Shown: one piece after another, positions 20,101 to 42,869 of the stretch
Layout: each line of letters opens with the position of its first letter
Position numbering within the stretch: position 1 is the stretch's first letter
Source: a bacterium
GTDB lineage: Bacteria > Zixibacteria > MSB-5A5 > WJJR01
Assembly (NCBI GenBank): GCA_035559435.1
Contig: DATMBC010000017.1
Coordinates: 11,848 to 75,847, forward strand
Direction: 5' to 3'
DNA: 64,000 nucleotides
Made by a program: the position numbers and the translations under genes
Notes under the pieces: model-generated
What the model was told of the DNA's origin: nothing
Seen by the model: the letters and a program-made list of their open reading frames with translations, nothing else
Database searches by the model: none

Positions 20101-21089
20101 TCGGCGAGCTGTTCATTGCGGCGGTTCCAGCGTTTCATCGCCGCCTGCGAGGTGTAGCAGCCGACCCCGTGACGGGTCATCACCAACTCGCCATTGTAGC
20201 GCGGCAATCTGGTGCGGTCGGCCTGCGCGACGACATCCACGATGTCGCCGGGTGCGATGCTCTTCACCGCCAGTGGGCCATCGGAATCCAGCGAGCGGGC
20301 CAGCTGCGCCACGGAATTGGAGTCGGGCGCGCCGCCGGTGTCGCCGGTGCCGAAATACCGCAGCGCCGCCGCCAGCCCGGAGGATTTGCGCTGCGCCTCG
20401 GCGCGCGCAAGCCAAAGCGTGTCGCGCGTCAGGTCGCCTTCGATCCTGCTGACATACTCGCCCGGATTGACCGCCGCCACCAGCGATGAGCCGTCGACCC
20501 CTTCCCAGACACCGATATCAAACGGCGTCCCGATCCAGGAGCCCCAGGTGAGTTTTTGCGTCGAAAAACTCTTCAGGCCGCAGTGCGCCGCGATCGACGG
20601 CAGCGCGAAACCAAAGCCGAAGCAGTCGGGCAGATAGACGTCGTGGCTTTGGACGCCAAACTCCCGCTTGTAGAATCCGTTGCCATAGAGCGTGTGGCGC
20701 ACCAGGGATTCGAACGACGGCAGATTGACATCGACCGCATCCACCCAACTGCCGGTCACGCGCCACTGGCCGGACCGGATGTACGGCCCCAGACGAGCGT
20801 AGAGGTCGGGGCGGTATTCCCGCAGCAGCTGGTAGCGGAAGGACCCTTCGAAGCTGAAGACATAACCGGGGTAGAGGTCCAGCAACCTGTAGTTGTCGGC
20901 GAAGGTGGCCGGCACATACTCGTTGATCGTCGTGCGGATGTCCCAGCGCCATTGCGTGTCCAGATGCGAGGTTCCGACCACATAGAGCATCGGCTTGTCG
21001 GCCGGTTGGGTCGTGCCCGGCGTCTGCGCGCGCGCCGCCACCGCCGCGACCAGCGCGATCGCCGCCAATGTCATGATCCATCGATTCAT
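17130..21089 (-). CDS. Secreted glycoside hydrolase family 38 (alpha-mannosidase) with C-terminal CHB_HEX_C-like and PA14-like domains
   Basis: Signal peptide MNRWIMTLAAIALVAAVAARA (start 21089, GGAGGGG RBS). GH38 N-domain motif VVGTSHLDTQWRW. Later YTLDGSDPSESSPLYAGPITL (chitobiase C-terminal-like) and GLACDYFEGTWDSLPDF (PA14-like). Confidence 0.8.
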   Translation of the reverse strand: MNRWIMTLAAIALVAAVAARAQTPGTTQPADKPMLYVVGTSHLDTQWRWDIRTTINEYVPATFADNYRLLDLYPGYVFSFEGSFRYQLLREYRPDLYARLGPYIRSGQWRVTGSWVDAVDVNLPSFESLVRHTLYGNGFYKREFGVQSHDVYLPDCFGFGFALPSIAAHCGLKSFSTQKLTWGSWIGTPFDIGVWEGVDGSSLVAAVNPGEYVSRIEGDLTRDTLWLARAEAQRKSSGLAAALRYFGTGDTGGAPDSNSVAQLARSLDSDGPLAVKSIAPGDIVDVVAQADRTRLPRYNGELVMTRHGVGCYTSQAAMKRWNRRNEQLADAAERALVIGSLFGGIQYPRSALEATWTRFLWHQFHDDLTGTSIPEAYQFSWNDEILTQNRFAGMLEHAIEAISPVLDTRAKGAPVVVYNPVGFAREDLVEAAVHFPAGAPSAVRIYGPQGAEVPAQVLGRSGDTVHVLFPARVPSVGLAVYDVRPAAAPLPATGASATPTTLENRRYRVTLNAVGDVASIFDKRHERELLAAPIEWQLLFDKPNAWPSWEIDYDEIQAPPRAVVGGEPQVQVMENGPVRASVRITRRQGPSEFRTTISLAEGDAGDMVRFDADIDWAEKETLLKAAFQLAHPNEHVTYDIGLGTIQRGLNHPKLYEVPGQQWADMTSTTGDYGVAILNDSRYGWDHPDSHTVRLSLIHTPGVYDSWSWVGDQRSQDIGTHHVAFAVIGHRGDWREGAVVAHAAAFNQPLIAFQTENHAGARSPFALIQVETYSSDGRIVSGPGTVHLNCVKAAERSDEIVIRLRETAGLAAPDVRVRCAFPIVAAREVNGAEEPLGEAVVREGVLTTSLGAYQPRAFAIRVAAPKSLTVAPPRCHPIELPFDLDGISLDTDRRDGDFDNGRSLAGELLPDTVLDHDIPFVTGPKSAGALNVVVCRGQELNLPAGDYNRLHLLLTSVGGPAEARFRIDGRDTSFWVQDYADYIGQWDSRLVAGRLVEEPGLIAPAYILRQPVGWYGTHRHSAHGENEAYQFTYLYHARLPLSPGARRITLPDDPRLRLFAMTAADAAYDDIRPAAPLYDVANATIARIAAPRTAFVDSLVVSLSSPSPDVELRYTLDGSDPSESSPLYAGPITLTATTTVKARAFSDQADNAHVAQATYALLGFEEPVTVTKTAPGLACDYFEGTWDSLPDFAILKPARQTVLDSVTLPPFAREEEFGLTARGYITVPIDGLYDFFLSSDDGSDLALADTVLIDNDGLHGMGEVGGAIGLRAGTYPLLVRMFQKKGGRGLVLLVEGPGMHRQEVPAAWFSHSPDGKHKRK

Positions 21090-21117
21090 CTTGATCCCCT
21101 CCAGGGTATGCCGTGCA

Positions 21118-22509
21118 TCAGGATTTGTCGCGCTCGGACGCAACCGTCGGACGGCGCAGAAAGCGCCAGCCGCGCGCCATGCCGCGGTGCTTCAGTTGAT
21201 CGATCAGGACCGCCGCCAGAATGACCAGTCCCAAAACCACCTTTTGCGTGTAGCTCTCGACGTTGGTCAGATTCATGCCGTTCTGGATGACGCCGATGAC
21301 CAGCGCGCCGATCAACGTACCGAGGACTCGTCCCTCGCCGCCGCTGAGACTGGCGCCGCCGACCACGACCGCGGCGATAACATTCAGCTCATAGCCCGCG
21401 CCGTAGGTCGGCGCCCCGCTTTTCAACTGCGACGCCATGATCACGCCGCCCAGCCCTGCCAGCGCGCCGCAGAGGGTGTAGACCGCATACTGGACGCGGT
21501 GGACGCGCACGCCCGCCAAACGCGCCGCTTCCGGATTGCCGCCGACGGCGTAGATGTAACGACCGAAAACGGTGCGCGTCATCACCAGGTGCGCGATCGC
21601 ATAGAGCGCAATCATCAACAAAACCGCGTTCGGAATGCGCAGCAGCGGCTCGGTGCCGCGTCCCAGCCAGATGAAGCCATCGGGAATCTGGTAGAGGGGC
21701 AGCCCCTGCGAGATGATGTAAGCGACTCCGGCGCCGACCTGCATCATCGCCAGCGTGGCGATAAAGGGCGGAATACGAAAACCGGTGATCATCCAGGCGC
21801 TGAACGCGCCCGCCAGCCCGCAGACGACGATCGCGCCCAGCGAGGCGAAGATCATACCGCCGGTGGAGGCGGCGTTCCCGCCCAGGGCTTCGATGAACCA
21901 GGCAGTTAACACCGCCGACAGCGCGATCAGACTGCCCGCCGACAGGTCTATTCCGCCGGCGATGATGACCATGGTCATGCCGATCGCAATGATCGCGATC
22001 ACCGCAATCTGATTGGCGACATTGCGCAGATTGTCGGCCAGAAGAAACGTGGGCCACCGCGACGGCGCCGGCGTTACCAGCGTCAGTGCCGCCGGCTCGG
22101 GCGCGCCCTGACGCAGTCCTTCCAGAATCGACCGCAGGGCCGCCGGCGCGGCGACCACTGCCGCCGACGCGCCCTGCCCCAGTCGCTCACGGATCGCGAA
22201 TGGATCACCCAGAAGGGCACCGGCCACTCTCAGTCCGCGTGATTCCAGCAACGACCGCAAATGCGCGACGAACAGACTGTCCTCATGGGTGGCGCGTCCC
22301 ACGATCAGCACGTCTTGTGCGGAGACATCCCGCGCCGCAAGCGACTCGGCCACCGCCGCGGCGCCGTCGGCGCCGGTCGGGTACTGATCGGCCACGGTGA
22401 GGATGGAGAAAAAGATGCCCAGAATGACGAGCACTCCGAGCATCCCATAATCGCTTAACAGCCCGACCAGACGGCCACGCCAGAGATGTGGAGGGCGAGC
22501 GTTCATCAT
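21118..22509 (-). CDS. Sugar ABC transporter permease (RbsC/AraH branched family) with an unusual ~150-aa insertion after TM1
   Basis: C-terminal 330 aa match the ribose/xylose-type permease core. Start at the MMNARPP ATG (22509), which nearly abuts the ATPase stop (22514). Confidence 0.8.
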   Translation of the reverse strand: MMNARPPHLWRGRLVGLLSDYGMLGVLVILGIFFSILTVADQYPTGADGAAAVAESLAARDVSAQDVLIVGRATHEDSLFVAHLRSLLESRGLRVAGALLGDPFAIRERLGQGASAAVVAAPAALRSILEGLRQGAPEPAALTLVTPAPSRWPTFLLADNLRNVANQIAVIAIIAIGMTMVIIAGGIDLSAGSLIALSAVLTAWFIEALGGNAASTGGMIFASLGAIVVCGLAGAFSAWMITGFRIPPFIATLAMMQVGAGVAYIISQGLPLYQIPDGFIWLGRGTEPLLRIPNAVLLMIALYAIAHLVMTRTVFGRYIYAVGGNPEAARLAGVRVHRVQYAVYTLCGALAGLGGVIMASQLKSGAPTYGAGYELNVIAAVVVGGASLSGGEGRVLGTLIGALVIGVIQNGMNLTNVESYTQKVVLGLVILAAVLIDQLKHRGMARGWRFLRRPTVASERDKS

Positions 22510-22513
22510 CGAA

Positions 22514-23941
22514 TCAGACGGCCAGCGCCATGATGGTTTCGGCGGAAGCCGTTTCGGTGTTGACGATTTCGCCGGCGATCTGACCGCGGCGCATGACCAG
22601 AATACGGTCGCACAATCCGAGCAATTCGGGGAATTCCGAGGAGATGACGACAATCGCCTTCCCCTGCGCCGCCAGCCGGCGAATCAGAAGGTACATCTCG
22701 TGCTTGGCGCCGACATCGATGCCGCGTGTCGGCTCATCGAAGATCAGGACGCGGGCGTTGGTTTCCAGCCAGCGCGCCACCAGGAGCTTCTGTTGATTGC
22801 CGCCCGAAAGGTCCCTTGCCGGTTGCGCCGGCGAACTGAGACGCAGCTTCAACTCGCCCGCCCGCGCGGAAAACCGCGCGCCTTCGCGCCCGCGGTCGAT
22901 CCACCCCGCGCGTGACCACGCGGCCATGTTGCCCAGCGCGAAGTTGCCGAGCGCCGAGAGAGACAGAACCAGTCCCTGCGACTTGCGGTCCTCGGTCAGC
23001 AGGCAAAGACCGGCGGCGATGGCATCGCGGGGGTTTCGTATCCGCGCCGGTCGGCCGTCGATGATGATCTCGCCGGCTGTCATCGGATCGGCGCCGAAGA
23101 CCAGCCGCGCCAATTCGCTGCGTCCGGCGCCGACCAGGCCGCCCAGCCCCAGCACTTCGCCGCGACGGACCGCAAACGAGATGTCGGAGACGCGCGCGCC
23201 GGTCAGGCGGCGCACCTCCAGCGCAATCTCTCCCGGATGCGAGTCACGCGGCGGGAACTCCTCGGCCAGCGACAGCCCGACCATCATCTCAATCAACGTG
23301 TCGCGATCCAGCGCGGCGGTGTCGCGCGACGGCACGGTCTGGCCGTCGCGCATGACGGTGACCCGATCGGAGAATGCGAGGATTTCCTCGAGCCGGTGAC
23401 TGATGAAGATGATGCCGATGCCGCGCGCGGCCAGCTCGCGCAGGATGCCGGCCAGACGGCCCGCCTCATGTGGCGAGAGCGATGCCGTCGGCTCATCGAG
23501 GATGAGAATGCGGGCCTCGCGGATCAACGCGCGCCCGATCTCCACCAGCTGCTGATGCCCGATGCTCAGATCGCGCACCGGGGTCTCCAATGGCAGTTCG
23601 ACGCCCAGCCGGTCGAGCACCGAACGGGCCAGCGCGCGTTCAGCGGCGGCATCGATGAAGCCGCGGCGCGGGGATTCCCGTCCCAGCAACAGGTTCTCGC
23701 GCACCGTGAGCGCGGGAACCAGTGAGAATTCCTGATAGATGGTGGCGATGCCGGCGGCGATGGCGTCGCCGGGGCGCCGGAATTGAATCGGGCGGCCCTC
23801 CAGCCGAATCTCCCCGGCGTCGGCGCTCTGCACACCGGTGATGATCTTGACCAACGTGCTCTTGCCGGCGCCGTTGGCGCCGAGGAGGGCGTGGATTTCC
23901 CCCGCGCGCAATTCAAACCCGGCGCCCCGCAGCGCGACCAC
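22514..23941 (-). CDS. Sugar ABC transporter ATP-binding protein with two fused NBDs (RbsA/MglA-like)
   Basis: Two Walker A motifs (GANGAGKST and GLVGAGRSE) and two LSGG signature motifs (the second as LSGGNQQK). Confidence 0.9.
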   Translation of the reverse strand: MVALRGAGFELRAGEIHALLGANGAGKSTLVKIITGVQSADAGEIRLEGRPIQFRRPGDAIAAGIATIYQEFSLVPALTVRENLLLGRESPRRGFIDAAAERALARSVLDRLGVELPLETPVRDLSIGHQQLVEIGRALIREARILILDEPTASLSPHEAGRLAGILRELAARGIGIIFISHRLEEILAFSDRVTVMRDGQTVPSRDTAALDRDTLIEMMVGLSLAEEFPPRDSHPGEIALEVRRLTGARVSDISFAVRRGEVLGLGGLVGAGRSELARLVFGADPMTAGEIIIDGRPARIRNPRDAIAAGLCLLTEDRKSQGLVLSLSALGNFALGNMAAWSRAGWIDRGREGARFSARAGELKLRLSSPAQPARDLSGGNQQKLLVARWLETNARVLIFDEPTRGIDVGAKHEMYLLIRRLAAQGKAIVVISSEFPELLGLCDRILVMRRGQIAGEIVNTETASAETIMALAV

Positions 23942-24037
23942 GCCGGGGAAGGCCTTGTGGATGCCGGTGGCGCACAGGAGCGGCGCGCCGCTGTCAGCGA
24001 TGGAGGATGAGCCCGTATATGCCTCGCGTGGCCGGCG

Positions 24038-24973
24038 CTACGACGCGCTGGCGGCGGTGAACAGATCGCAGGGCACCAGAACCTGCGGCGCGACGGCGGC
24101 GCCGGAGAAGTAGGCCCGGACCGCCTCGATGGTCTTCTGCCCGATCACGCGCGGCCGCTGGATCACATCGGCAACGATCTTGCCGGCCTGGATCGCCGCG
24201 CGCGCCTCGGGGACGGCATCGAAGCCGACCACACGCACACTGCCGAGTTTGCCCGCCTTTTCGATGGCCGCCAACGCGCCCAGGGCCGAATCGTCATTGA
24301 TGCCAAAGATCCCATTCAGATCGGGATGCGCCTGCAGGATATCCTCGGTGGTTTTCATCGCCTGGTCTTTCATGCCGCGACCGGAGAGCTTGGCGACGAT
24401 GCGCATGCCGGGATGTTTGGCCAGTTCCTCCTCGAAACCGCGCACGCGCTGGATGACCGACTCGACTTCGGGATGGTCGATGATCGCCACGTTCCCATGG
24501 CCGCCGAGCGCCTGCGCCAGCGCCTGAGCGGCCAACGCGCCGCCGGCGACGTTGTCGGAGGCCACATGTGAGACGATCCGCACACCCTCGGCGAGGCAGG
24601 CGATGTCGGCGGTGAAGACCGGAATGCCGGCGTCGTTGGCGGCCTTGACCGCGGTGCCGATCGATTTGGAGTCGCACGGCGCCACGATGATGGCGTCGAC
24701 CTTGCGCACGATGAACTCGCCCAATTGATCCTTCTGGCGCGCGACATCGAACTCGCCGGCGGTGACAATCAGCGTGTAACCCGCCGCCGCGGCCGCGTCG
24801 GTCAAGCCCGCTTCGAGTTCCTGATAGAACGGATGAGTGCGGGTCAGAAGCGAGACGCCGATGGTGAAGTCCTTCTTCGCTTGCGACGACGGTTCGGGAC
24901 CGCTTTTCCCGCAGCCGAGCACCAGGACGACCGCCACAACGGCCGTCAGCAGACCGGAGACCAATGCGCGCAT
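24038..24973 (-). CDS. Sugar ABC transporter periplasmic substrate-binding lipoprotein (RbsB-like type I PBP)
   Basis: Lipobox LVLGC GK at the N-terminus. Periplasmic-binding-protein fold motifs. First gene of the operon transporter-ATPase-permease-GH38. Confidence 0.85.
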   Translation of the reverse strand: MRALVSGLLTAVVAVVLVLGCGKSGPEPSSQAKKDFTIGVSLLTRTHPFYQELEAGLTDAAAAAGYTLIVTAGEFDVARQKDQLGEFIVRKVDAIIVAPCDSKSIGTAVKAANDAGIPVFTADIACLAEGVRIVSHVASDNVAGGALAAQALAQALGGHGNVAIIDHPEVESVIQRVRGFEEELAKHPGMRIVAKLSGRGMKDQAMKTTEDILQAHPDLNGIFGINDDSALGALAAIEKAGKLGSVRVVGFDAVPEARAAIQAGKIVADVIQRPRVIGQKTIEAVRAYFSGAAVAPQVLVPCDLFTAASAS

Positions 24974-25275: not shown

Positions 25276-25680
25276 ATGGAATGCCAATTCCCCAAGCAAG
25301 CTGCATCGCTGGAGTCCATCTTCGAATTTGTCAGCGAATTGGCCAACCGGCACGGCGTATCCGCCGACATCACCCGCGAGATGCAATTCGCCATCGAAGA
25401 GATCTTCACCAACATGGTGCGATACAACACCGAAACGCACAACGATGTGACGATCGATGCCGACGTGGCCGACGGCGTCTTCCGTGTGACGCTGGCCGAC
25501 CGCGACGTGCACTCCTTCGACCCAACGCAGCGTCCGCCGGTGGACACCGAGCGCCCCCCGCACGAACGCACACCCGGCGGCTTGGGAATTCATCTGGTGC
25601 GGCAGATGATGGATGATGTCCGTTACGAGTATGTCGACCGCACCGCGCGCATCACATTGATCAAACGTCTGGAGACCTGA
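25276..25680 (+). CDS. Anti-sigma regulatory factor, serine protein kinase (RsbW/SpoIIAB-like HATPase_c)
   Basis: 134 aa. N-box EEIFTNMVRYN and G-box PGGLGIHLV. Confidence 0.8.
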   Translation: MECQFPKQAASLESIFEFVSELANRHGVSADITREMQFAIEEIFTNMVRYNTETHNDVTIDADVADGVFRVTLADRDVHSFDPTQRPPVDTERPPHERTPGGLGIHLVRQMMDDVRYEYVDRTARITLIKRLET

Positions 25681-25682
25681 CC

Positions 25683-25964
25683 ATGCTCAAGGTTGAACTG
25701 GCCGACAAATCCACCATCGTGCTTACCGGTCGATTCGACGCCTCCCAGGTGTCGCAGGCCGACCCGGTCTTCGACAGTCTGGAGGGCAACAGCGTGCTGG
25801 ACTGCCGGGGCCTGGACTACATCTCCAGCGCTGGCATCGGCGTGGTTCTCGGCGCCTACAAACGATTGCACGAACAGGGGCACACCCTGACCATGATCAA
25901 TGTCAACGACCACATCCGTCAGGTCTTCCGCTATGCGGGCCTGGACAAGATCATCAAGATGTAA
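25683..25964 (+). CDS. STAS-domain anti-sigma-factor antagonist (RsbV/SpoIIAA-like)
   Basis: 93 aa. Conserved phosphorylatable Ser in LDYISSAGIGVVL. 2-nt gap after the kinase gene. Confidence 0.8.
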   Translation: MLKVELADKSTIVLTGRFDASQVSQADPVFDSLEGNSVLDCRGLDYISSAGIGVVLGAYKRLHEQGHTLTMINVNDHIRQVFRYAGLDKIIKM

Positions 25965-26194: not shown

Positions 26195-26752
26195 ATGGCT
26201 GTCATTATGTCGACGTTCGATGACCAGGCACTGGTGAGAAAGTGCCTTGCCGGCGAAACGGAGGCGTTCGGGGAATTGATCGATCGTCACCAACGGGCGC
26301 TGTTCAACACGGCCCTGCGGATGACGGGTGACAGCGAAGAAGCCGCCGACCTGACGCAGAGCGCCTTTGTCAAGGCCTACGAGAAGTTGGACAGTTATCG
26401 ACCCGAGCACAAGTTCTTCAGCTGGATTTATCGGATTCTGGTGAACGAAACCATCAACGCGCTCAAACAGAGGAGACAACAGCAGGGATTGGACATGGAA
26501 CCGGAATCGTCGGACCCGACGCCGGATGAACTGCACGAGACCAATGTCCGCAATCTTCGCATCGAGACGGCCCTGCGCGAGTTGTCCTTCGACTACCGGT
26601 TGGTGATTGTGTTGCGCTACTTCAACGATATGAGCTACCAGGAGATGAGCGAGATTCTCGCCGTGCCGGAGAAGACGGTCAAGTCGCGGCTTTACACGGC
26701 GCGTCAGAATCTGGCAACGATCCTGGGACGGATGGGAGTGGTGACGCCGTGA
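26195..26752 (+). CDS. ECF (group 4) RNA polymerase sigma-70 factor
   Basis: Region 2 (FGELIDRHQRALFNTALRMTGDSEEAADLTQSAFVKAY) and region 4 HTH (YQEMSEILAVPEKTVKSRLYTARQNL). An alternative ATG lies at 26207. Confidence 0.9.
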   Translation: MAVIMSTFDDQALVRKCLAGETEAFGELIDRHQRALFNTALRMTGDSEEAADLTQSAFVKAYEKLDSYRPEHKFFSWIYRILVNETINALKQRRQQQGLDMEPESSDPTPDELHETNVRNLRIETALRELSFDYRLVIVLRYFNDMSYQEMSEILAVPEKTVKSRLYTARQNLATILGRMGVVTP

Positions 26753-27522
26753 TCGAAGAACGTCTCCTGCATCTGATTCACCGGGCGGCCGACAACGCGC
26801 TGTCCGAGCGCGAGCGGACCGAACTCGACCGCCGTCTGCAGGACTCACCCGAGGCGCGCCGGCTGTACGAACAGATTCTCGGATTGAAGGATCTGGCATC
26901 GGCGGTGCCATCGGTGGAGCCGCCGGCCGCGTTGAAGTCGCGCATCCTGGCGCAGATCGATCCGGCGCGGTATCGCCGGCGCACGGCCGATTCGCGGACG
27001 ATCGCCGGCTGGATCGGCCATCTGTGGACGCCGCAACTGGCCTATGGTCTGGCGGCCGGGCTGATCCTCGGCATCGGGGTGGCGACGCTGACCCACAACG
27101 CGAGCGTCGACCCGTTGAACCCGCGGGACCTGTCCGGCACGATCCTGCGGCAGCAGCCATCGACGCTGTCGCGGATCGACGCCGACGCCTTCACCACCGG
27201 CCAGGCGACCGGCCGGCTGGCCGTGGACGCGGGCAATGGACTGACCTATGTCCAGATCGCGTTGGAATCGTCGTTGGAAGTCGCCGTGGTGCTGGAGTTT
27301 GACGAAAGCGCCTTGGTCGCCCGCGCCTACGAGCAACAGCAGCCGCAGGCGGGCAACATCACCGCCGCCCCCGGACGGATCACTGCCACCCACTTGGGAC
27401 AGAATCGCTATCTCTTTGTGCTGGACCAGATTGCCGACACCGACCGGCCGCTGGTCTGCCGCATCGAATCCACCGGGCAGATCTACCAGCGCGAAATCCG
27501 CCTCCCTCGGCAGGGCGATTGA
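26749..27522 (+). CDS. Membrane-spanning ECF anti-sigma factor
   Basis: GTGA overlap with the sigma gene. N-terminal anti-sigma helix region, single TM (LAYGLAAGLILGIGVATL), and a C-terminal extracytoplasmic domain of about 150 aa. Confidence 0.75.
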   Translation: MIEERLLHLIHRAADNALSERERTELDRRLQDSPEARRLYEQILGLKDLASAVPSVEPPAALKSRILAQIDPARYRRRTADSRTIAGWIGHLWTPQLAYGLAAGLILGIGVATLTHNASVDPLNPRDLSGTILRQQPSTLSRIDADAFTTGQATGRLAVDAGNGLTYVQIALESSLEVAVVLEFDESALVARAYEQQQPQAGNITAAPGRITATHLGQNRYLFVLDQIADTDRPLVCRIESTGQIYQREIRLPRQGD

Positions 27523-27542
27523 GCCACCAACCTTTTCCAACC

Positions 27543-27568
27543 GGAATTGTCATTATTACACTTCGAAT
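27543..27568 (+). promoter_or_regulatory. Candidate ECF-type promoter (GGAAT-N16-TCGAA) upstream of the repeat-protein gene
   Basis: aaccGGAATtgtcattattacactTCGAAtgg lies 35-60 nt upstream of the ATG. It resembles the GGAAC-N16-CGAA style of ECF promoters. Inference only. Confidence 0.3.
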
Positions 27569-27602
27569 GGGATTGAGAGCGACAGAAAGCGAGGAAAACG
27601 AA

Positions 27603-28664
27603 ATGGCACAGAACAAGTCGAACGGCACGAAGTTCATCATCATCGGCGGCGTCGCCGTCGTGGCGGTGGTGGCGATCGTGCTTATCTCCGGCGTGTATCC
27701 GCCGGCCAAGGAAGATGTGTCGGGCACGATCGGGGTGGCGGAGCGCTACCGGACCGAGCAAATCACCGACGCGGACGTGAAGATCGAGGACGCGGGCGTG
27801 CAGGCGCTTCTGCAGGACGACGAGGTGATCGCCCTGTTGCAGAGCGCCGAGTTCCAGACGCTGGCCTCCACGCCGGGCGTGATTGAGCTGATGACGAGCC
27901 CGACCTTCGCGGAGCTGGCCAAGTCGCCGGTCTTTGCCGAACTGTCGCGCGATCCGCACTTTGCCGAACTGGCGAAGAGCCCGCAGTACGCCGAACTGAT
28001 GAAGTCGCCGATTTACGTCGACCTGGCCAAGAACCCGCAGATGTTGGAGCTGGCCAAGAGCCCGATCCTGATGGAGCTGGCGAAGGTGCCGACCTACGCC
28101 GAACTCTCCGCCAAGCCCCAGTGGGTGGAGCTGGCCAAGAATCCGCAGATGGCTGAGTTGATCCGCGACCCGAAGTTCGCCGAGCTGGCGCGTGTCCCGA
28201 ACGTCGTCGAGTTGTCGTCCAACCCGCAGTTCGCCGAACTGATGAAACAGCCGCAGTATGCCGAGCTTTCCAAGCAGCCGGCGCTGATCGAACTGGCCAA
28301 GACCCCGCTTCTGATCGAACTGGCCAAAGTTCCGGCCTTCGTCGAGCTGGCCAAGCAGCCGTCGCTGATGGAGCTGGCTTCGCGTCCGGGCATCATGGAA
28401 CTGGCGAAGAACCCGACGCTCGCCGAGCTGGCCCGTCAGCCGCAGTACGCCGAGCTGATCACCAAGCCCGGCTACGCCGAACTGATGAAGTCGCCCAGCT
28501 ACCTCGAGTTGGCCAAGAAGCCGGTCTTCATCGACCTGGCCACCAACCCGAAGTTCGCCGACCTGATGAAGAAGCCGGAATTCATCGACCTGGCCACCAA
28601 TCCCAAGTTCGCCGATCTGGCCAGCAACCCGAAGTTCATGGAGCTGGTCATGCGCTCTGAGTAA
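27603..28664 (+). CDS. Membrane-anchored protein made of about 30 tandem nonapeptide repeats (consensus x-E-L-A-K-x-P-x-[FY]). Function unknown.
   Basis: ATG at 27603 with a GAGGA RBS. N-terminal TM FIIIGGVAVVAVVAIVLISG. From about residue 67 to the C-terminus there are near-perfect 9-aa repeats (FAELAKSPV, FAELSRDPH, FAELAKSPQ, YAELMKSPI ...). The ORF track entry starts at 27519. Confidence 0.8.
   Translation: MAQNKSNGTKFIIIGGVAVVAVVAIVLISGVYPPAKEDVSGTIGVAERYRTEQITDADVKIEDAGVQALLQDDEVIALLQSAEFQTLASTPGVIELMTSPTFAELAKSPVFAELSRDPHFAELAKSPQYAELMKSPIYVDLAKNPQMLELAKSPILMELAKVPTYAELSAKPQWVELAKNPQMAELIRDPKFAELARVPNVVELSSNPQFAELMKQPQYAELSKQPALIELAKTPLLIELAKVPAFVELAKQPSLMELASRPGIMELAKNPTLAELARQPQYAELITKPGYAELMKSPSYLELAKKPVFIDLATNPKFADLMKKPEFIDLATNPKFADLASNPKFMELVMRSE
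27801..28660 (+). repeat. 27-nt tandem coding repeat array (about 30 units) inside the nonapeptide-repeat gene
   Basis: Visible in DNA as reiterated gccgaactggc[c/g]aag...ccg... units with period 27. Translated units keep E2, L3, K5 and P7. Confidence 0.85.
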
Positions 28665-28691: not shown

Positions 28692-28733
28692 GGCGGGACG
28701 CGGTCGACATTGACCGCGTCCCGCCTTTCGTTG
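28692..28733 (+). terminator. Rho-independent terminator after the repeat-protein gene
   Basis: Perfect 14-bp inverted repeat ggcgggacgcggtc/gaccgcgtcccgcc, followed by tttcgttgtt. Confidence 0.7.
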
Positions 28734-28747
28734 TTCCTTACCGTCCG

Positions 28748-31690
28748 ATGAAGACTCACCGTGTCCTCTTTCCGCTGGCGGCGCTCCTGATGATCGGGGC
28801 CGCCGCCACGCCCGTGCGGGCCGGTCTGCGCTACATGGAGACCGCCCACCTGCGGCTGGTGTACGTCGATGGCCTCCACTCGTTTCTCGCCCCACACGCG
28901 GTCCGTTGCTTCGAGAATTCCTACAACTTCCACGTGAACCTCTGGGGCCACGAACTGGACGGGAAGACCAATGTCTTCCTGCACGATCTCGGCGATCAGG
29001 CCAACGGCGGGGCCAAGAACATCCCGCGCAACATGATCATCGCCGCCATCGCGCCGTTCAACTACGCCTACGAGACGATGCCCGCCAACGAGCGCATCAA
29101 CACCATCATGAATCACGAGGTGGCGCACCTCTACACGATGGACCGTCCCGGCGCCTGGGACCGCTTCTTCCGCGCCGTCTTCTTCGGCAAGCCGGAGCCG
29201 ATCGCCGAGCAGCCGGTCACCATCCTGTACGACTATCTCACCTCACCGCGGCGCTCGGCGCCGCGCTGGTACCAGGAAGGCATCGCGGTCTTCCTCGAAA
29301 CATGGATGGCGGGCGGGTATGGCCGCGCGTTGGGTTCCTACGATGAAATGGTCTTCCGGACCATGGTCCATGACGGCGCGCGCTTCTACGACCCCGTTGG
29401 CCTTGAGTCGGAGGCCACGCGGAAGGATTTCCACGTCGGCGTCAATTCGTACCTCTACGGCACCCGCTTCATGAGCTACCTGGCGTTGCAGCACGGTCCG
29501 GAGAAGGTGATGGAGTGGGTCAATCGCGCCGCGGGCAGCCGGGCCTACTTCATGGCGCAATTCCGCCGGGTCTTCGGCCAGTCGCTCGACGATGCCTGGC
29601 GCGACTGGATCGCCTATGAACGGGATTTCCAGGCGGCCAATCTGGCGCGGGTGCGCGAATACCCGGTGACGCCCCACCGCGATCTCTCCGACATGGCGCT
29701 GGGCTCGATGTCGCGCGCCTTTCTCGATCCCGCCTCGCGGACCTTGTACGCGGCGGTCAACTACCCGGGACGCATCGCCCACATCGCCGCGATCAACATC
29801 GACGACGGAAAAAGCGAACGGCTCTGCGATGTCAAGGGCGCCTCGCTCTACTACGCCAGCTCGACCGCTTACGACCCCCGGTCGCACACGCTCTTCTACA
29901 CCGCGGACAACTACGGCTGGCGCGACCTGTGCGCCGTCAACACGCAGACCCGCGAACGCCAAACCCTGATGAAGGACGCCCGCATCGGCGACCTGGCCTT
30001 CAACCGCGTCGACAGCTCGCTGTGGGGGGTGCGTCATTTCAACGGCATGTCGACGGTGGTGCGCATCCCGTTTCCCTACCGCGAATGGAAGACGGTCTAC
30101 GCCTGGCCTTACGGGCGGGACATCTATGACCTGGATATCTCGCCCGATGGACGGCTGCTCGCCGCGTCGCTGGCCTATGTCTCAGGGCGGCAGACGCTGA
30201 TCCTGATGCGCACCGATTCCCTGCTGGCCGGCGACACGTCGCACGTCGAGCTGTACGACTTCCACAACACCATCCCGCAGAGTTTCATCTTTTCGGAGGA
30301 TGGCCGCTATCTCTACGGATCCTCGTACTTCACCGGCGTGTCGAACGTCTTCCGTTACGATCTGAAAGTCGACTCGATGGATGCCATGTCCAACGCCGAG
30401 ACGGGATTCTTCCGCCCGCTGCCGGTCGGCGCCGATTCCGCCATTGTGTTCCGCTACACCGCCGCCGGGTTTGTGCCCGCGATGGTCCCGTTGCGTCCCT
30501 TGCAGGACGTGAACGCGATCGACTACTTCGGGCAACAGATTGTGGAGCGGCATCCCGTCGTGACGGAGTGGCTGGCGGGGTCGCCGGGGCGGATCGACGT
30601 GGACTCAGTGGTGATTAAACGCGGGGACTATCGCATCGCCACCAGTTGGAATCTGATGTCGCTCTATCCGGTGGTCGAGGGATTCAAGACCACGACCGCC
30701 GGCGGTCTGCGGCTCAATTTCGCCGACCATCTTGGACTGCATCAGGCCGATCTGACGGTGTCGTATTCGCCGGAAGAAAACCTGCCGCGCGACGAACGCT
30801 GGCATGTCGGCGCGCACTACTCGTATGGCGCCTGGGACGCCCGCTTCACTTACAACAAGGCCGACTTCTACGACCTGTTCGGCCCGACCAAGACCAGCCG
30901 CCGCGGCTACTCCGGCATGCTGGAGCACTCACACTCGCTGCTCTACGACGAGCCGCGGGTGATGGACCTGACCGTCGGCGCCGCCGGGTACTGGGATCTG
31001 GAACGCCTGCCCGATTATCAAAACGTCGCCGCGGCCTTCGACGAACTCTACACCGCCTGGATCGATCTGCACTATGAGAACATGACCACGTCGCTGGGGG
31101 CGGTCGAGCAGGAAAAAGGGATCCAGTGGACGCTCTCTCCCAGCGGGGCCTATGTGAACGACGATTTCTACCCCGCGGCGGTCGGTCGTCTTGACGGTGG
31201 ATTGCCGATCTTGATTCCGCATTCGTCGCTCTGGGTGCGCACGGCCGCCGGCATGGCCCCGGACAAGAAGGACGATCCGTTTGCCAATTTCTATTTCGGC
31301 GGCTTCGGCAACAACTGGGTCGACCACGGTAAGGTGAAGCGCTACCGCGAGTGGTACAGCTTCCCCGGTCTGGCGCTCAACGAGGTCGGGGGCACCAACT
31401 TCGTGCGCGTCATGGCCGATTGGAACCTGCCGCCTCTGCGATTCCGTCGCCTCGGATTCCCGGCGCTTTACTGCGCCTGGGCGCGGGCCTCGATTTTCTC
31501 CTCGGCGCTGGTCACCAATCTTGACGTCTCCGACGCGCGCGTCGAGGTCGGCAACATCGGCGCGCAGCTGGACCTGCAATTCCAACTGCTGTCGCAGTTG
31601 AAACTGACCTTCTCTGTCGGCTACGCCCGCGCTTACCGCAAGGACCGGCGCGGATCAGATGAGACGATGGTCTCGCTGAAGGTCCTATGA
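28748..31690 (+). CDS. Secreted 980-aa protein: N-terminal HExxH (putative zinc-metallopeptidase-like) region, central beta-propeller-like region, C-terminal beta-barrel-like region
   Basis: Signal peptide MKTHRVLFPLAALLMIGAAATPVRA. HEVAH at residues 123-127 with E in QEGIAVFLE about 50 residues later. DISPDGR / SEDGRYLYGSSYF propeller-like blades. C-terminal alternating amphipathic beta strands. ATGA overlap with downstream prsW. Confidence 0.55.
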   Translation: MKTHRVLFPLAALLMIGAAATPVRAGLRYMETAHLRLVYVDGLHSFLAPHAVRCFENSYNFHVNLWGHELDGKTNVFLHDLGDQANGGAKNIPRNMIIAAIAPFNYAYETMPANERINTIMNHEVAHLYTMDRPGAWDRFFRAVFFGKPEPIAEQPVTILYDYLTSPRRSAPRWYQEGIAVFLETWMAGGYGRALGSYDEMVFRTMVHDGARFYDPVGLESEATRKDFHVGVNSYLYGTRFMSYLALQHGPEKVMEWVNRAAGSRAYFMAQFRRVFGQSLDDAWRDWIAYERDFQAANLARVREYPVTPHRDLSDMALGSMSRAFLDPASRTLYAAVNYPGRIAHIAAINIDDGKSERLCDVKGASLYYASSTAYDPRSHTLFYTADNYGWRDLCAVNTQTRERQTLMKDARIGDLAFNRVDSSLWGVRHFNGMSTVVRIPFPYREWKTVYAWPYGRDIYDLDISPDGRLLAASLAYVSGRQTLILMRTDSLLAGDTSHVELYDFHNTIPQSFIFSEDGRYLYGSSYFTGVSNVFRYDLKVDSMDAMSNAETGFFRPLPVGADSAIVFRYTAAGFVPAMVPLRPLQDVNAIDYFGQQIVERHPVVTEWLAGSPGRIDVDSVVIKRGDYRIATSWNLMSLYPVVEGFKTTTAGGLRLNFADHLGLHQADLTVSYSPEENLPRDERWHVGAHYSYGAWDARFTYNKADFYDLFGPTKTSRRGYSGMLEHSHSLLYDEPRVMDLTVGAAGYWDLERLPDYQNVAAAFDELYTAWIDLHYENMTTSLGAVEQEKGIQWTLSPSGAYVNDDFYPAAVGRLDGGLPILIPHSSLWVRTAAGMAPDKKDDPFANFYFGGFGNNWVDHGKVKRYREWYSFPGLALNEVGGTNFVRVMADWNLPPLRFRRLGFPALYCAWARASIFSSALVTNLDVSDARVEVGNIGAQLDLQFQLLSQLKLTFSVGYARAYRKDRRGSDETMVSLKVL

Positions 31691-32691
31691 TCGAACTGCT
31701 CAAGACGGGTGTCAGTCTGTTGCCGGTGCTGATCTTCCTGGCGCTGCTGATCCTGCTGGACAGTTACAAACTGGTCGCCAAGCAACTGGTGGCGGCGACG
31801 ATCGTAGCCGGCGCGGCGGCGGCGGCGCTGTGCGCCCCGGTCAACGCCCTCCTGGTGCAGACTCTCCCCGGCGGCGCTGCGGTCTACTCACGCTACCTGG
31901 CGCCAATCGTCGAGGAGAGCGTCAAGACAATCCCCCTCGTCGTGCTGTTCCGCGGCAACCGTGTCGGCTTCATGGTTGACGCCGCCATCTATGGGTTCGC
32001 GGTCGGCGCGGGGTTCTCGCTGGTGGAGAATGTCTTCTATCTGTTCAGCCTCAAGAGCGCCAATGTGGTGGTGTGGATCATCCGCGGTTTCGGCACCGCC
32101 GCCATGCACGCCGCCACCATGGCGATGCTGGCGGTCATCACCAAGACCCTGATTGATCGCCGCGGCCGTCTTGTCGGGTGGGCGTTCCTCCCCGGCCTGC
32201 TGTTGGCGATCGCCACGCACTCGCTGTTTAATCACTTCATCCTCTCCCCCACCCTGTCCACCGTGCTGCTCATGGTCCTTTTGCCGCTTTTGGTCGTGCT
32301 TGTCTTTCAGCGCAGCGAGAAGGCCACCGAGGAGTGGTTGGGCGTGGGCTTTGACGCCGATCAGGATCTGATGGGTCAGTTGTCCACCGGCGAGTTTTCG
32401 CAGACGCGCATCGGACAGTACCTGCACACCCTGCAGGCGCATTTTCCACCCGCGGTGGTCGTGGATATGTTCTGCCTGTTGCGCATCCGCACCGAGCTGG
32501 CCCTGCGCGCCAAGGGCGTGGTGATGATGCGTCAGGCGGGCATCGATGTGCCCCCCGATCCCGAACTGCGGGAGAAATTCGAAGAGATGGCCTTCCTCGA
32601 ACGCAGCATCGGCAAGACCGGGATGCTGGCCATGCGTCCCTTCCTGCACACCTCCACCCGCGACCTCTGGCAGTTAACCACGATCAAGTAG
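31687..32691 (+). CDS. prsW: PrsW-family intramembrane metalloprotease (anti-sigma factor site-1 protease family)
   Basis: Polytopic membrane protein. Conserved EESVK (EExxK), FxxxH region (MHAATMAM) and HSLFNH motifs of the PrsW/CPBP-related family. Confidence 0.75.
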   Translation: MIELLKTGVSLLPVLIFLALLILLDSYKLVAKQLVAATIVAGAAAAALCAPVNALLVQTLPGGAAVYSRYLAPIVEESVKTIPLVVLFRGNRVGFMVDAAIYGFAVGAGFSLVENVFYLFSLKSANVVVWIIRGFGTAAMHAATMAMLAVITKTLIDRRGRLVGWAFLPGLLLAIATHSLFNHFILSPTLSTVLLMVLLPLLVVLVFQRSEKATEEWLGVGFDADQDLMGQLSTGEFSQTRIGQYLHTLQAHFPPAVVVDMFCLLRIRTELALRAKGVVMMRQAGIDVPPDPELREKFEEMAFLERSIGKTGMLAMRPFLHTSTRDLWQLTTIK

Positions 32692-38640: not shown

Positions 38641-39501
38641 TCAACGGATCAAGAGATTGTCGATATAGCGCCGGCCCAGGGCGGGTCCCTTGACGCGGCA
38701 ACGCGCCGCCACCAGGATCACCAGCGGCGGGACGGCGGTCTTTTTTGATGCCAGTGTCGCCGGGTCGCAGAAGCCGATCTGGTCGACGTCGAAACGTCCC
38801 CCGGCTTCGATCATTCCGGTCATAACCCTCGTCAGCCGCGCCACGTTGCGCCGTCCGGCGCGAATCTCCCGTCCCGCCCACAGCAGCGAGCGGTGAATCG
38901 AACGCGCGTCCTGGCGGCTGAGCGCATCAAGATACGCATTTCGCGACGACATCGCAAGGCCGCCCGGCTCGCGCACCGTCGGCGCAACCACCAGCCGCAC
39001 CGGCAGATTGAGGTCGGTCACCATGCGCCGGATCACCACGGTCTGCTGGTAATCCTTTTGCCCGAAGATCGCCACGTCCGGCCCGATGATGTAAAACAGC
39101 TTGGCCACCACCGTGGCGACGCCCTCGAAGTGCCCCGGACGCGCCGCGCCCTCCCAGAGATCGCCGATCGGGCCGACACGAATCATCGTCGCGAATCCCT
39201 CGGGGTACATTGTCTCCACCGACGGCGCAAAAATCAGATCGACCCCCGCGCGGCGGCAGACGCGCAGGTCACTTTTCCAGGTCCGGGGGTAGCTGGAGAA
39301 ATCCTCGCGCGGGCCGAATTGGGTGGGGTTGACGAAGATCGAGACCACGGTGCGATCGCAGAGCCGGCGGCAGCGGCGCACCAGCGACAGATGCCCCTCA
39401 TGCAAGGCGCCCATGGTGGGGACCAGCCCCACACGCAACCCCCGCGCCCGCCAGGCGGCCACCTGGCGGCGCACGGAAGCGATGGAGCGCGCCACGGTCA
39501 C
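38641..39501 (-). CDS. panC: Pantoate--beta-alanine ligase
   Basis: VPTMGALHEGHLSL HIGH-type motif. Start placed at the GTG (39501) next to the dcd stop, to avoid an 89-nt overlap. The track ORF runs to 39591. Confidence 0.85.
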   Translation of the reverse strand: MTVARSIASVRRQVAAWRARGLRVGLVPTMGALHEGHLSLVRRCRRLCDRTVVSIFVNPTQFGPREDFSSYPRTWKSDLRVCRRAGVDLIFAPSVETMYPEGFATMIRVGPIGDLWEGAARPGHFEGVATVVAKLFYIIGPDVAIFGQKDYQQTVVIRRMVTDLNLPVRLVVAPTVREPGGLAMSSRNAYLDALSRQDARSIHRSLLWAGREIRAGRRNVARLTRVMTGMIEAGGRFDVDQIGFCDPATLASKKTAVPPLVILVAARCRVKGPALGRRYIDNLLIR

Positions 39502-39502
39502 G

Positions 39503-40057
39503 TTAGAGTTTCGGGACAGTAATGCCCTGCTGGCCCTGATATTTCCCCTTCTTGTCGGCGTAAGAGACTTCGCAGTCCTCGTCGGACTCAAAGAAGAGCA
39601 CCTGGGCGATCCCCTCGTTGGCGTAGATGCGCGCCGGCAGGGGCGTGGTGTTGGAAATCTCGAGCGTGACGAATCCCTCCCACTCCGGCTCGAAGGGAGT
39701 CACATTGGTGATGATGCCGCAGCGGGCATAGGTCGATTTGCCGACACAGACGGTCAGCACACGGCGCGGAATGCGGAAGTATTCCACCGAGCGCGCCAGC
39801 GCAAACGAGTTGGGCGGGATCGTGCAGACATCCGCCTGAATCTCCACAAAGGCGTTGGCGTCGAACTGCTTGGGATCAACCACCGTCGTGCGCACGTTGG
39901 TGAACACCTTGAACTCATCGGCCACCCGCATGTCGTAGCCGTACGAGGAGACGCCATAGGAGATCACGCCCTGGCGGACCTGCCGGTCGGCGAAGGGTTC
40001 GATCATGCGATGCTTGAGCGCCATTTCCTTGATCCAGCTGTCCGACTTAATCGACAT
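39503..40057 (-). CDS. dcd: dCTP deaminase
   Basis: 184 aa, dUTPase-like fold. VSSYGYDMR and [13 protein letters not shown] motifs. Confidence 0.9.
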
Positions 40058-40135
40058 GCGTCTCTCCTCGTTGAGGTCACAAAGACGGCGGCCAAAGTAC
40101 GCGAAAAGTCCGCGCAGGTAAACCCCCGGATTGGG

Positions 40136-40696: not shown

Positions 40697-40708
40697 GTCG
40701 ATCTCCTC

Positions 40709-42754: not shown

Positions 42755-42869
42755 GGGGATGTGAGCGGGAAGTAAGGTAGCCAATCGGCGCGGCGGCGGC
42801 AAGCGGCGGCCGGGATGGTTGCCGAGGGTGTTGGTTCGTACCCGGTGATCATCTACATTGTTCCCCGTC

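Follow-up and report, generated by a model that had tools for sequence, protein, structure and literature searches.

A predicted zinc peptidase, propeller and Omp85-type barrel protein encoded beside a PrsW-family protease: a possible link between two membranes

Analyses of sequence, predicted structure and gene neighbourhood in a 64,000-nucleotide stretch of a Zixibacteria contig (the window) indicated that a 980-aa protein, encoded from an ATG start at 28748..31690 (this and all other features discussed are on the forward strand), combines a signal peptide, a gluzincin peptidase domain, a six-bladed propeller and an Omp85-type barrel, and that its gene is coupled to one encoding a PrsW-family intramembrane protease. 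The locus ties a candidate Omp85-anchored zinc protease to PrsW, to a repeat protein and to an ECF sigma/anti-sigma pair, and this link suggests signalling or quality-control between both membranes. The reading that we prefer, tentatively and with somewhat less than even confidence, is that the protein may be a periplasmic endopeptidase tethered to the outer membrane, acting together with PrsW on a periplasmic substrate that is anchored in the membrane and feeding into ECF sigma control as part of a trans-envelope relay.

Domain architecture and family assignment

The sequence-only reading of this DNA had described a secreted 980-aa protein made up of a protease, a propeller and a barrel. The open reading frame was recovered as described, and the AlphaFold model of its product (pLDDT 91, pTM 0.89) contained these three domains. 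A Sec-type signal peptide was read from the sequence at residues 1-25 (28748..28822), where the N-terminus MKTHRVLFPLAALLMIGAAATPVRA, followed by GL, has a single hydrophobic stretch (residues 5-25) and a putative cleavage site between VRA and G. No lipobox Cys was seen in this N-terminus, and the AlphaFold model places a helix at residues 2-19. The homolog search returned more than 5161 proteins, every one of approximately 980 aa; matches to the gene set were found in at least 589 species-level genomes (more than 5000 proteins), and identity between phyla exceeds 50% over the full length. The HMM search proposed earlier, when run with Pfam and NCBIfam, reached no usable model, with Porin_4 as the only match (E 0.086), and PDB sequence searches with the single sequence or with a 116-sequence profile gave chance or weak propeller matches only.

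The N-terminal domain (residues ~27-302; 28826..29653) adopts a thermolysin-like zincin fold of the gluzincin (clan MA) type in the AlphaFold model, with 7-16% sequence identity to solved gluzincins. The HEVAH motif noted earlier at residues 123-127 (29114..29128) proved to be the sole HExxH of the protein and is predicted to form the zinc-binding and catalytic motif. The Glu that had been put forward as a third ligand is E177 (29276..29278), about 50 residues from H127 in W-Y-Q-E-G-I-A, and its conservation makes it the probable third zinc ligand. The model places HEVAH in a helix spanning residues 116-132, and E177 in a later one at residues 173-187. A lack of HExxH conservation had been named beforehand as a possible refutation; H123, E124, H127 and E177 are invariant in 116/116 close homologs (51-77% identity), and all four are retained in 27 of 29 full-length distant relatives with identity down to 23%. 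Position 177 is occupied by Glu in 28 of these 29 relatives and by Asp in P0141, and every PrsW-linked relative examined has HExxH plus E177.

The sequence around E177, W-Y-Q-E-G-I-A, resembles the 'NEGFA' motif of M1 peptidases, which carry a GxMEN motif upstream of HExxH and have the spacing HExxH-x18-E. No occurrence of the GxMEN exopeptidase motif (pattern G.MEN) was found anywhere in the 980-aa protein, and membership of the M1 aminopeptidases was rejected on the grounds that GxMEN is absent and that the HExxH-to-Glu spacing differs (49 vs 18 intervening residues). Among the gluzincins (clan MA(E): M1, M30, M9 and M4), this spacing is ~18-20 residues in M1 and M4, whereas it is 50 in the 980-aa protein, on which none of the Pfam and NCBIfam peptidase models reaches threshold. 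Because the HExxH...E site is intact and GxMEN is absent, the N-terminal domain is probably an endopeptidase.

In the AlphaFold model the peptidase domain is followed by a six-bladed TolB-like beta-propeller (residues ~310-585; 29675..30502), by a linker of short helices (residues 594-621) and by a 16-stranded Omp85-like beta-barrel (residues ~624-980; 30617..31687), for which BamA is the best match. No POTRA domain was matched by Pfam in the protein, and the region preceding the barrel contains short helices only; Omp85 subfamilies that lack POTRA domains are recognised (PMC4104836). A long conserved loop of 47 residues between barrel strands 11 and 12 (residues 837-883, 31256..31396; FYFGGFGNNWVD...RYR...FPG) occupies the position of Omp85 loop L6, with G851, G852, F853, N855, N856, D859 and P873 invariant in 116 homologs, and sub-threshold Pfam Omp85_2 matches recur there. 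The canonical Omp85 L6 motif is (V/I)RG(F/Y); in the loop motif the G-G half (F-x-x-G-G / F-x-F-G-G) is present and RG[FY] is absent. The Pfam search gave no match of the 980-aa protein to the Omp85 profiles PF01103 and PF19143, and the best Omp85 profile score in its relatives was E 0.0012 and 18.7 bits, with a cut-off of 23.1.

The family could not be named in the sequence-only reading. On the AlphaFold model, however, with a peptidase-like domain and a TolB-like propeller N-terminal to the barrel, the protein matches in architecture the subfamily that Heinz & Lithgow (2014; PMC4104836) called 'WD40-like Omp85'. The WD40-like members in Table S3 of that paper combine a barrel of the BamA/TamA kind with a TolB-like propeller and an N-terminal match of the aminopeptidase/collagenase type, and they come from Ignavibacterium, Melioribacter, Caldithrix, Rhodothermus, Salinibacter, Anaeromyxobacter and others (PMC4104836). 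This three-part architecture is shared, and the loci studied here are mainly from uncultured relatives of several of the listed groups. The clade of the window lies below the Pfam Omp85 thresholds. Identical architecture and taxon overlap suggest homology to the UniProt members of that table, such as I0AH41, H1XQ58 and D0MEQ5. The propeller of the subfamily was discussed as a 'BamA-BamB fusion' in a main text that does not deal with the peptidase domain, PrsW or ECF sigma factors (PMC4104836), and WD40-like Omp85 proteins were still listed in 2024 among the subfamilies that are not well characterised (PMC11116518).

Linkage to PrsW and to upstream genes

At the junction ...CTATGATCG..., the TGA stop codon of the 980-aa gene (31688-31690) overlaps the prsW ATG (31687-31689), which confirms the ATGA coupling read earlier. 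The downstream open reading frame (31687..32691, 334 aa) matched PF13367 (PrsW-protease; E 1e-20, 74.4 bits, cut-off 23.5). Its product contains the PrsW motifs EESVK (76), FSLVE (110) and HSLFN (178), five hydrophobic segments, and a C-terminal extension of ~125 aa in which Pfam gave no match. Against the NCBIfam equivalog the protein scored 35.6, short of the cut-off of 225, and it is therefore regarded as a member of the family and not as an equivalog of B. subtilis PrsW.

The association with PrsW turned out to be far stronger than could be known from one locus, since the two are neighbours across phyla and fused in one lineage. In 68 of the 74 related loci, the 980-aa homolog is followed on its own strand, no more than 500 nt away, by a prsW-like gene, and the prsW-linked loci came from Zixibacteria, KSB1, Eisenbacteria, Ignavibacteria, Bacteroidota, Fibrobacteres and Acidobacteriota. 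The fused form, of 1365 aa, was represented by 4 cluster members on several contigs, and it keeps a signal-peptide-like hydrophobic segment between the PrsW part and the protease/barrel part; the idea of a soluble periplasmic barrel, which the fusion had prompted, was rejected because of this retained segment. A relative with 34% identity retains the trio of a TM protein, a 980-aa-type protein and PrsW. PrsW neighbours are absent in two paralog lineages that were checked and also from the two relatives lacking HExxH. Paralogs of the same architecture were found in unrelated contexts, one of them adjoining a gene for a SurA-like chaperone. In the literature searched, the PrsW gene context of WD40-like Omp85 proteins was not found, and the text of the ECF reclassification paper (PMC7826278) is silent on PrsW, on the propeller and on the phyla concerned.

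Upstream of the 980-aa gene lies a gene encoding an ECF sigma factor (26195..26752) with Sigma70_r2 and r4_2 domains, whose best named matches are SigW-type models (PRK09641 SigW, E 3e-36, below cut-off) and which scores 123 bits, above cut-off, against TIGR02937; such a gene was found upstream of the 980-aa homolog in 46 of 54 loci. Its end overlaps (GTGA) the start of the gene for a 257-aa single-pass anti-sigma factor (26749..27522; TM segment 96-115; NF052375, E 1e-11, below cut-off), from which the HxxxCxxC zinc motif is absent and whose periplasmic domain is poorly conserved (~21-29% identity at most loci beyond the closest relatives). The next gene (27519..28664, although its true start may be the ATG at 27603) encodes a membrane-anchored protein with one TM segment, the juxtamembrane motif GTIGVAERYRTEQI..DV and 29 in-register 9-aa repeats, x-P-x-[FY]-x-E-L-A-K. 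A repeat protein is present in the same gene slot in 49 of 54 loci; the type and length of the repeats differ from locus to locus, and of 63 loci 43 carry the juxtamembrane motif, which none of the reverse-strand controls contained. Further upstream, an RsbW-like kinase (25276-25680; PF13581, E 4e-23) and a STAS anti-anti-sigma protein (25683-25964; PF13466, E 2e-13) are encoded, with homologs among 19 and 27 ORFs of related loci, respectively, as conserved upstream neighbours in part of the loci. When the regions upstream of the sigma genes in 47 loci were searched for dyads of a common ECF-type promoter, no motif exceeded the shuffled control.

The 980-aa gene had previously been placed in the same operon as the anti-sigma gene. 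This is uncertain, and counting against it is an intervening terminator-like hairpin (28692..28725; a 15-bp G+C-rich stem with a T-rich tail) that ends 22 nt 5' of the ATG; comparable hairpins were found at 38/73 related loci vs 0-5/73 in coding-sequence controls. Judged from gene content, the conserved core of the locus is the anchor protein, the 980-aa protein and PrsW, because in more distant PrsW-linked relatives a membrane-anchored periplasmic protein is retained although sigma/anti-sigma genes are missing from the neighbourhood. Since sigma/anti-sigma genes are absent next to the fusion lineage as well, sigma control may be a clade-specific add-on or may be a role other than the primary one.

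Possible roles in the envelope

According to the relay that we tentatively prefer, the protein would be fixed in the outer membrane by its BamA-like barrel of 16 strands after Sec export and removal of the signal peptide, and both N-terminal domains would lie in the periplasm, by analogy with other Omp85 proteins; for PlpD, a periplasmic location of the N-terminal enzyme domain has been demonstrated (PMC11116518). The protein would act as a unit with the two inner-membrane partners encoded beside it, namely the PrsW-family protease and the single-pass repeat protein, whose long and variable part of helical repeats would also be periplasmic. The propeller would bind, and the zinc protease would cut or trim, the periplasmic part of the anchored partner and/or of the anti-sigma factor; PrsW would make the membrane-proximal cut, and the outcome in this clade would be the release of the adjacent SigW-like ECF sigma factor. 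The periplasmic topology, the substrates, the order of the cuts and the signal sensed are all what we infer. In its favour are the conserved active site, the synteny and fusion with PrsW, the trio kept by the 34%-identical relative, the missing PrsW neighbours of the two paralog lineages and of the relatives lacking HExxH, and the upstream sigma and repeat-protein genes. The lack of adjacent sigma genes in distant relatives, the hairpin, the poor conservation of the anti-sigma domain and the non-significant profile comparison with an Omp85 barrel of the window count against this relay. The two-protease cascade on the anti-sigma factor that the sequence-only reading had suggested is one reading only, as more distant PrsW-linked relatives lack neighbouring sigma/anti-sigma genes.

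It may also be, although we regard it as rather unlikely, that the two membranes are physically bridged for signalling and that the PrsW-linked WD40-like Omp85 clade supplies the end of this bridge in the outer membrane. The barrel, with its own protease and propeller, would then engage the inner-membrane-anchored repeat protein as a 'tether' of variable length, and loss or change of this contact, through outer-membrane damage, envelope spacing or a barrel ligand, would license PrsW to destroy the anti-sigma factor. With such a bridge, an Omp85 protein would for the first time have a role in signalling and a PrsW protease a defined upstream input, and the arrangement would be conserved from Acidobacteriota to Bacteroidota.

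A possible but doubtful alternative to the relay is that the protein is a BepA/DegP-like effector of envelope quality control and that PrsW clears membrane proteins, both belonging to the regulon of the ECF sigma factor and not to its regulators. Consistent with this, more distant relatives and the fusion lineage have the pair but no sigma/anti-sigma genes beside it, paralogs of the 980-aa protein lie in unrelated contexts, including the one beside a SurA-like chaperone gene, and the terminator-like hairpin separates the gene from the regulatory genes; periplasmic quality control has also been proposed for the 'Metallo' Omp85 subfamily, which has a different N-terminal domain, PF00149 (PMC4104836). 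However, site-1 cleavage of an anti-sigma factor is the only documented role of PrsW, the co-conserved anchored partner with its conserved juxtamembrane motif hints at a specific substrate or partner, and more than 50% identity across phyla over 980 aa suggests tightly constrained interactions.

It is improbable that the protein is an outer-membrane assembly or translocation factor, as the 'BamA-BamB fusion' idea would have it, in which the function lies in the barrel, the propeller serves as a platform for docking and the peptidase domain is accessory. The Omp85 proteins characterised before PlpD all assemble or translocate proteins (PMC11116518; PMC4104836), and the BamA match, the 16 strands and the conserved lumen-type loop at the L6 position fit such a function, but POTRA domains and RG[FY] are absent, only the F-x-F-G-G half of the motif is present, Pfam Omp85 scores stay below threshold, and the strict PrsW linkage and the invariant zinc site would be left unexplained.

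Very improbable is a surface-displayed or secreted autotransporter-like protease for nutrient acquisition or for interaction with a host or competitor. The order of an N-terminal enzyme and a C-terminal barrel resembles type V secretion, and the linker has short helices, but a folded propeller of ~30 kDa together with a 30-kDa zincin would be unlikely to serve as a passenger, the conserved L6-like loop apparently fills the lumen of the barrel, the two conserved partners reside in the inner membrane, and the N-terminal enzyme domain of PlpD, formerly the paradigm of passenger export, has been demonstrated to be periplasmic (PMC11116518). Equally hard to credit is a non-catalytic scaffold, in which the zincin domain binds a peptide or partner without cleaving it, given that none of the 116 close homologs and none of the PrsW-linked relatives examined deviates from HExxH and E177, and that the two relatives without HExxH have no PrsW neighbour.

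Relation to characterised systems

In Bacillus, PrsW is the classic example of a site-1 protease, acting in SigW control. It cuts RsiW at site 1 in B. subtilis, after which further extracytoplasmic trimming by other peptidases is reportedly needed before RasP acts. We know of no study of PrsW in bacteria with two membranes. The locus described here shares with the SigW-RsiW-PrsW system a SigW-like ECF sigma factor, a single-pass anti-sigma factor and a PrsW-family protease with intact motifs, whereas it differs in its two-membrane host, in the clustering of all genes and in the C-terminal extension of PrsW (~125 aa). The outer-membrane protease and the membrane-anchored repeat protein that are co-conserved with PrsW do not belong to the Bacillus system.

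Two further systems resemble the locus by analogy only: TamA-TamB, in which an Omp85 outer-membrane protein is paired with an inner-membrane-anchored partner spanning the periplasm, and the DegS-RseA-RseB branch of E. coli sigma-E control, in which the status of the outer membrane is coupled to anti-sigma proteolysis. No sequence relationship of the locus genes to TamB, DegS, RseA or RseB was found. The established function of Omp85 proteins is protein insertion or translocation, and in 2024 several conserved subfamilies with other N-terminal domains, the WD40-like one among them, still counted as not well characterised (PMC11116518). The locus offers testable hypotheses on what one orphan subfamily of Omp85 does and on the way in which PrsW is signalled to, and for the poorly studied phyla Zixibacteria, KSB1, Eisenbacteria, Ignavibacteria and Acidobacteriota it represents a candidate pathway of envelope stress.

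PlpD, like the 980-aa protein, has an enzyme domain N-terminal to an Omp85 barrel, but it combines a lipase with POTRA whereas the 980-aa protein combines a zincin with a propeller and has no POTRA. Profile comparison by hhalign of the 980-aa family with the PlpD-like Omp85 barrel of the window, the latter as a single sequence or as a shallow 6-sequence profile, gave no significant similarity between the two barrels. The PlpD-like gene itself is located in the window at 42858-45296, and a homolog search with its product returned 5 proteins.

Predicted architecture and metal site of the 980-aa protein

The open reading frame, the HExxH motif and the coupling to prsW that a preceding sequence-only reading had described were all found in the window. 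The gene (28748-31690 (+)) starts with ATG, encodes 980 aa, and its stop shares ATGA with the ATG of prsW. The N-terminus of the product (MKTHRVLFPLAALLMIGAAATPVRA followed by GL), which contains a hydrophobic stretch at residues 5-25 and no lipobox cysteine, displays the charged, hydrophobic, small-residue order of a Sec signal peptide and reads as a putative one.

An AlphaFold2 model of the protein, built with a 116-sequence alignment, was of high confidence (mean pLDDT 91, pTM 0.89). It consists of a signal-peptide helix at the N-terminal end, an alpha/beta domain (residues 27-302; helix 116-132 bears the HExxH and helix 173-187 bears E177), a propeller (residues 319-581) whose 24 strands form six four-stranded blades, a short helical linker, and a barrel (residues 635-979) of 16 long strands. 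In the C-terminal domain, most strands present a polar and a hydrophobic face. Barrel strands 11 and 12 are joined by a highly conserved loop of 47 residues (837-883, FYFGGFGNNWVD...RYR...FPG), at the position where Omp85 proteins carry the lumen-filling loop L6, and sub-threshold matches to Pfam Omp85_2 in several homologs fall exactly on this loop. Other homologs gave sub-threshold Peptidase_MA_2 matches, and PD40 matches were obtained in 16 of 30.

A word-indexed search of ~5.8 billion proteins yielded more than 5161 significant homologs, and nearly all of the 120 listed were ~980 aa long (954-1015) with 51-96% identity. HEVAH (residues 123-127) is the sole HExxH of the protein, and in an alignment of 116 of the listed homologs H123, E124, H127 and E177 were invariant, as was much of the W-x-x-E-G-x-A-V-F-x-E-T-W motif around E177. 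HMMER, run exhaustively against 1.84 billion cluster representatives, recovered 2643 relatives, the full-length ones reaching down to 23% identity; among 29 distant full-length relatives, the HExxH was kept in 27, and the position of E177 held Glu in 28 and Asp in one. The motif is thus conserved in close and in nearly all of these distant homologs, contrary to the outcome that the sequence-only reading had named as refuting it. An M1 aminopeptidase identity was ruled out by the absence of a GxMEN motif from the protein and by the 49-residue spacing between H127 and E177, features that argue for a predicted gluzincin outside M1, most likely an endopeptidase.

The family, which the sequence-only reading could not name, can be named from this architecture. 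The Omp85/TpsB superfamily has been split into ten subfamilies, one of them 'WD40-like' (Heinz & Lithgow 2014, PMC4104836). For this subfamily the main text of that study mentions only a TolB-like propeller and speculates on a BamA-BamB fusion, and its Table S3 gives for the members a BamA/TamA barrel match, a TolB match and a 'best aminopeptidase hit', with tricorn factor F3, aminopeptidase A, ERAP1 and collagenase as templates. The 980-aa protein has the same three-domain architecture and matches the same templates, and is a protein of WD40-like Omp85 architecture; architecture and taxonomy together suggest its orthology to the Table S3 members, which come from Ignavibacterium, Melioribacter, Caldithrix, Rhodothermus, Salinibacter, Anaeromyxobacter, Sorangium and others. 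The three-domain arrangement is therefore not new, having been catalogued in 2014, and the family is uncharacterised; in 2024 the WD40-like group was still among the Omp85 subfamilies not well characterised (PMC11116518).

In PlpD, another Omp85 protein, the N-terminal enzyme domain remains periplasmic (PMC11116518). The 64-kb window itself encodes, at 42858-45296 (+), a PlpD-like protein that combines patatin, POTRA and Omp85 barrel domains (PF01734, PF07244, PF01103) and so is a second enzyme-Omp85 fusion. Sequence-profile comparison detected no link between its barrel and that of the 980-aa protein, so that the probable Omp85 membership of the latter is assigned from its fold, its number of strands and the position of its loop.

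Gene order and its conservation across phyla

The gene order in the window is an RsbW-like HATPase_c_2 kinase (25276-25680 (+)), a STAS anti-anti-sigma protein (25683-25964 (+)) directly upstream of the sigma gene, an ECF sigma factor (26195-26752 (+)), an anti-sigma factor (26749-27522 (+), GTGA overlap with the sigma gene), a membrane-anchored repeat protein (27519-28664 (+), TTGA overlap with the anti-sigma gene, probable true start 27603), a hairpin, the 980-aa gene and prsW. The highest-scoring models for the sigma factor were SigW models, whose equivalog cut-offs it did not reach, and the anti-sigma factor is single-pass, without a zinc motif. The adjoining of a partner-switching pair (RsbW-like and STAS) to an ECF sigma/anti-sigma pair is unusual.

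Scanning one genome per species turned up at least 589 loci, the best 80 of which belong to Zixibacteria, KSB1, Calditrichia, Eisenbacteria, Latescibacteria, Ignavibacteria, Bacteroidota, Fibrobacteres, Marinimicrobia, Rhodothermales and Acidobacteriota. The closest genome match, a MAG labelled 'uncultured Ignavibacteria' (L001), showed 96% protein identity and was collinear with the window, including carAB, and the next-best matches (81% and 56%) include Zixibacteria. By tblastn, a prsW-like gene was located downstream, in the same orientation and no more than 500 nt away, in 68 of the 74 loci with enough downstream sequence, often with an overlap of 1-4 nt, and upstream an ECF sigma gene (46/54 loci) and a repeat-protein homolog (49/54) were found. 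Some of the related loci also have kinase homologs (19 ORF matches) and STAS homologs (27 ORF matches) ahead of the sigma gene.

The hairpin (28692-28725 (+)) has a 15-bp G+C-rich stem and a T-rich tail, and ends 22 nt before the ATG of the 980-aa gene. Comparable hairpins, defined by a folding energy of <= -15 kcal/mol and a T tail within 300 nt upstream of the 980-aa gene homolog, were present in 38 of 73 loci versus 0-5 of 73 for coding-sequence controls. GGAGAT...ATCTCC arms, which contain a Shine-Dalgarno-like GGAG together with its complement, are common to many of these hairpins. The interval between the hairpin and the ATG is too short for a promoter, which suggests a leaky terminator or attenuator that may keep the 980-aa gene and prsW at a lower level of expression than the sigma, anti-sigma and repeat genes. 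The proposal that the 980-aa gene lies in the same operon as the anti-sigma factor is qualified by the hairpin between the two genes.

PrsW, the repeat anchor and distant relatives

The PrsW-family protease (31687-32691 (+); Pfam PrsW-protease E 1e-20, well above threshold) keeps the EExxK, FxxxE and HxxxN motifs. It differs from the 218-aa PrsW of B. subtilis, which is not known to have such an extension, in a C-terminal domain of ~125 aa (residues ~210-334; 32317-32691 (+)), presumably cytoplasmic, for which no Pfam match or known family was found.

The repeat protein crosses the membrane with a single TM segment, bears the motif YPP..D.SGTIGVAERYRTEQI..DV immediately outside it, and contains 29 nonapeptide repeats in perfect register, x-P-x-[FY]-x-E-L-A-K. 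The TM segment and juxtamembrane motif (GTIG..KYR..Q) were kept in 43 of 63 loci (none in reverse-strand controls). The repeats vary by locus (DARFAELMK, DKNFRKAVQ, SEAFRNALN, ATLQEKA...), and the periplasmic part of the orthologs ranges from ~200 to 770 aa. A juxtamembrane motif that is conserved, together with a helical stalk that is hypervariable, is compatible with a role as tether, ruler or protease substrate.

A fusion protein of 1365 aa (P0152; L081 8001-12098 and L082 4839-8936) comprises a PrsW domain that includes the C-terminal extension, then a hydrophobic segment resembling a signal peptide, and finally a complete copy of a 980-aa-type protein. Its four near-identical members occur on several independent contigs, and it is therefore no one-off sequencing error. 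Upstream of it is a 369-aa single-pass protein, and no sigma/anti-sigma genes were found nearby. In a relative with 34% identity (P0296), a 307-aa single-pass protein, the 980-aa-type protein and PrsW form a trio with no sigma gene beside it. The G-x-I-G-K-A core of the juxtamembrane motif is recognisable in both. Since both lineages keep the anchor and PrsW without sigma genes, the core conserved at depth comprises the membrane-anchored protein, the Omp85-protease and PrsW; the window's clade has the sigma/anti-sigma pair joined to this core.

PrsW and ECF neighbours were absent in two paralog lineages (~29-31% identity), and also beside two relatives, P0141 (L089 6001-8934) and P0163 (L090 6001-8943), that have lost the HExxH (RESMQ and YQTTQ) and kept the whole architecture. 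One of the latter has a 2654-aa protein on one side and a gene for a SurA-like chaperone on the other. The paralogs P0155 (1226 aa) and P0157 (1211 aa) carry an N-terminal extension of ~250 aa, with a weak AMIN-domain match in P0157 and no Pfam match in P0155; in locus L088 the P0155 gene is followed by TPR and histidine-kinase genes, not PrsW.

Possible role of the module

The conserved module, Omp85-protease, PrsW, repeat anchor and ECF sigma/anti-sigma factors, with or without the partner-switching pair, is akin to known Omp85 enzyme fusions and to PrsW-dependent ECF control. In B. subtilis, PrsW makes the site-1 cut in the anti-sigma factor RsiW, and trimming of the cut protein by other extracytoplasmic peptidases is reportedly needed ahead of site-2 proteolysis (work of Heinrich et al. 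in 2009). The best-supported reading, which we propose tentatively as a possibility somewhat short of probable, is that the barrel would hold both a periplasmic endopeptidase and a propeller that binds peptides at the outer membrane. Together with PrsW, these two domains would process the membrane-anchored partner, the anti-sigma factor or both, and this processing would control the ECF sigma factor in the window's clade. Alternatively, the 980-aa protein and PrsW might be envelope quality-control effectors rather than regulators, the foremost of the other explanations and one we consider unlikely. Roles of the 980-aa protein as an assembly factor, in surface display or as a non-catalytic scaffold are less likely still. 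A literature search returned no work tying PrsW to Omp85 proteins, joint mentions concerning toxins only. The module is both widespread and strongly conserved, and through it two questions become open to direct test, namely what this orphan Omp85 subfamily does and how PrsW receives its signal.

Elsewhere in the window, which has a G+C content of ~64%, two candidate large ORFs in G+C-rich sequence (46613-49111 (-), 832 aa, and 39323-40732 (+), 469 aa) had no Pfam match at E 1e-5. A GH38 alpha-mannosidase of 1337 aa with CHB_HEX_C, Fn3-associated and PA14 domains is encoded at 17130-21143 (-) and adjoins ABC-transporter genes for sugar uptake (21118-24973 (-)).
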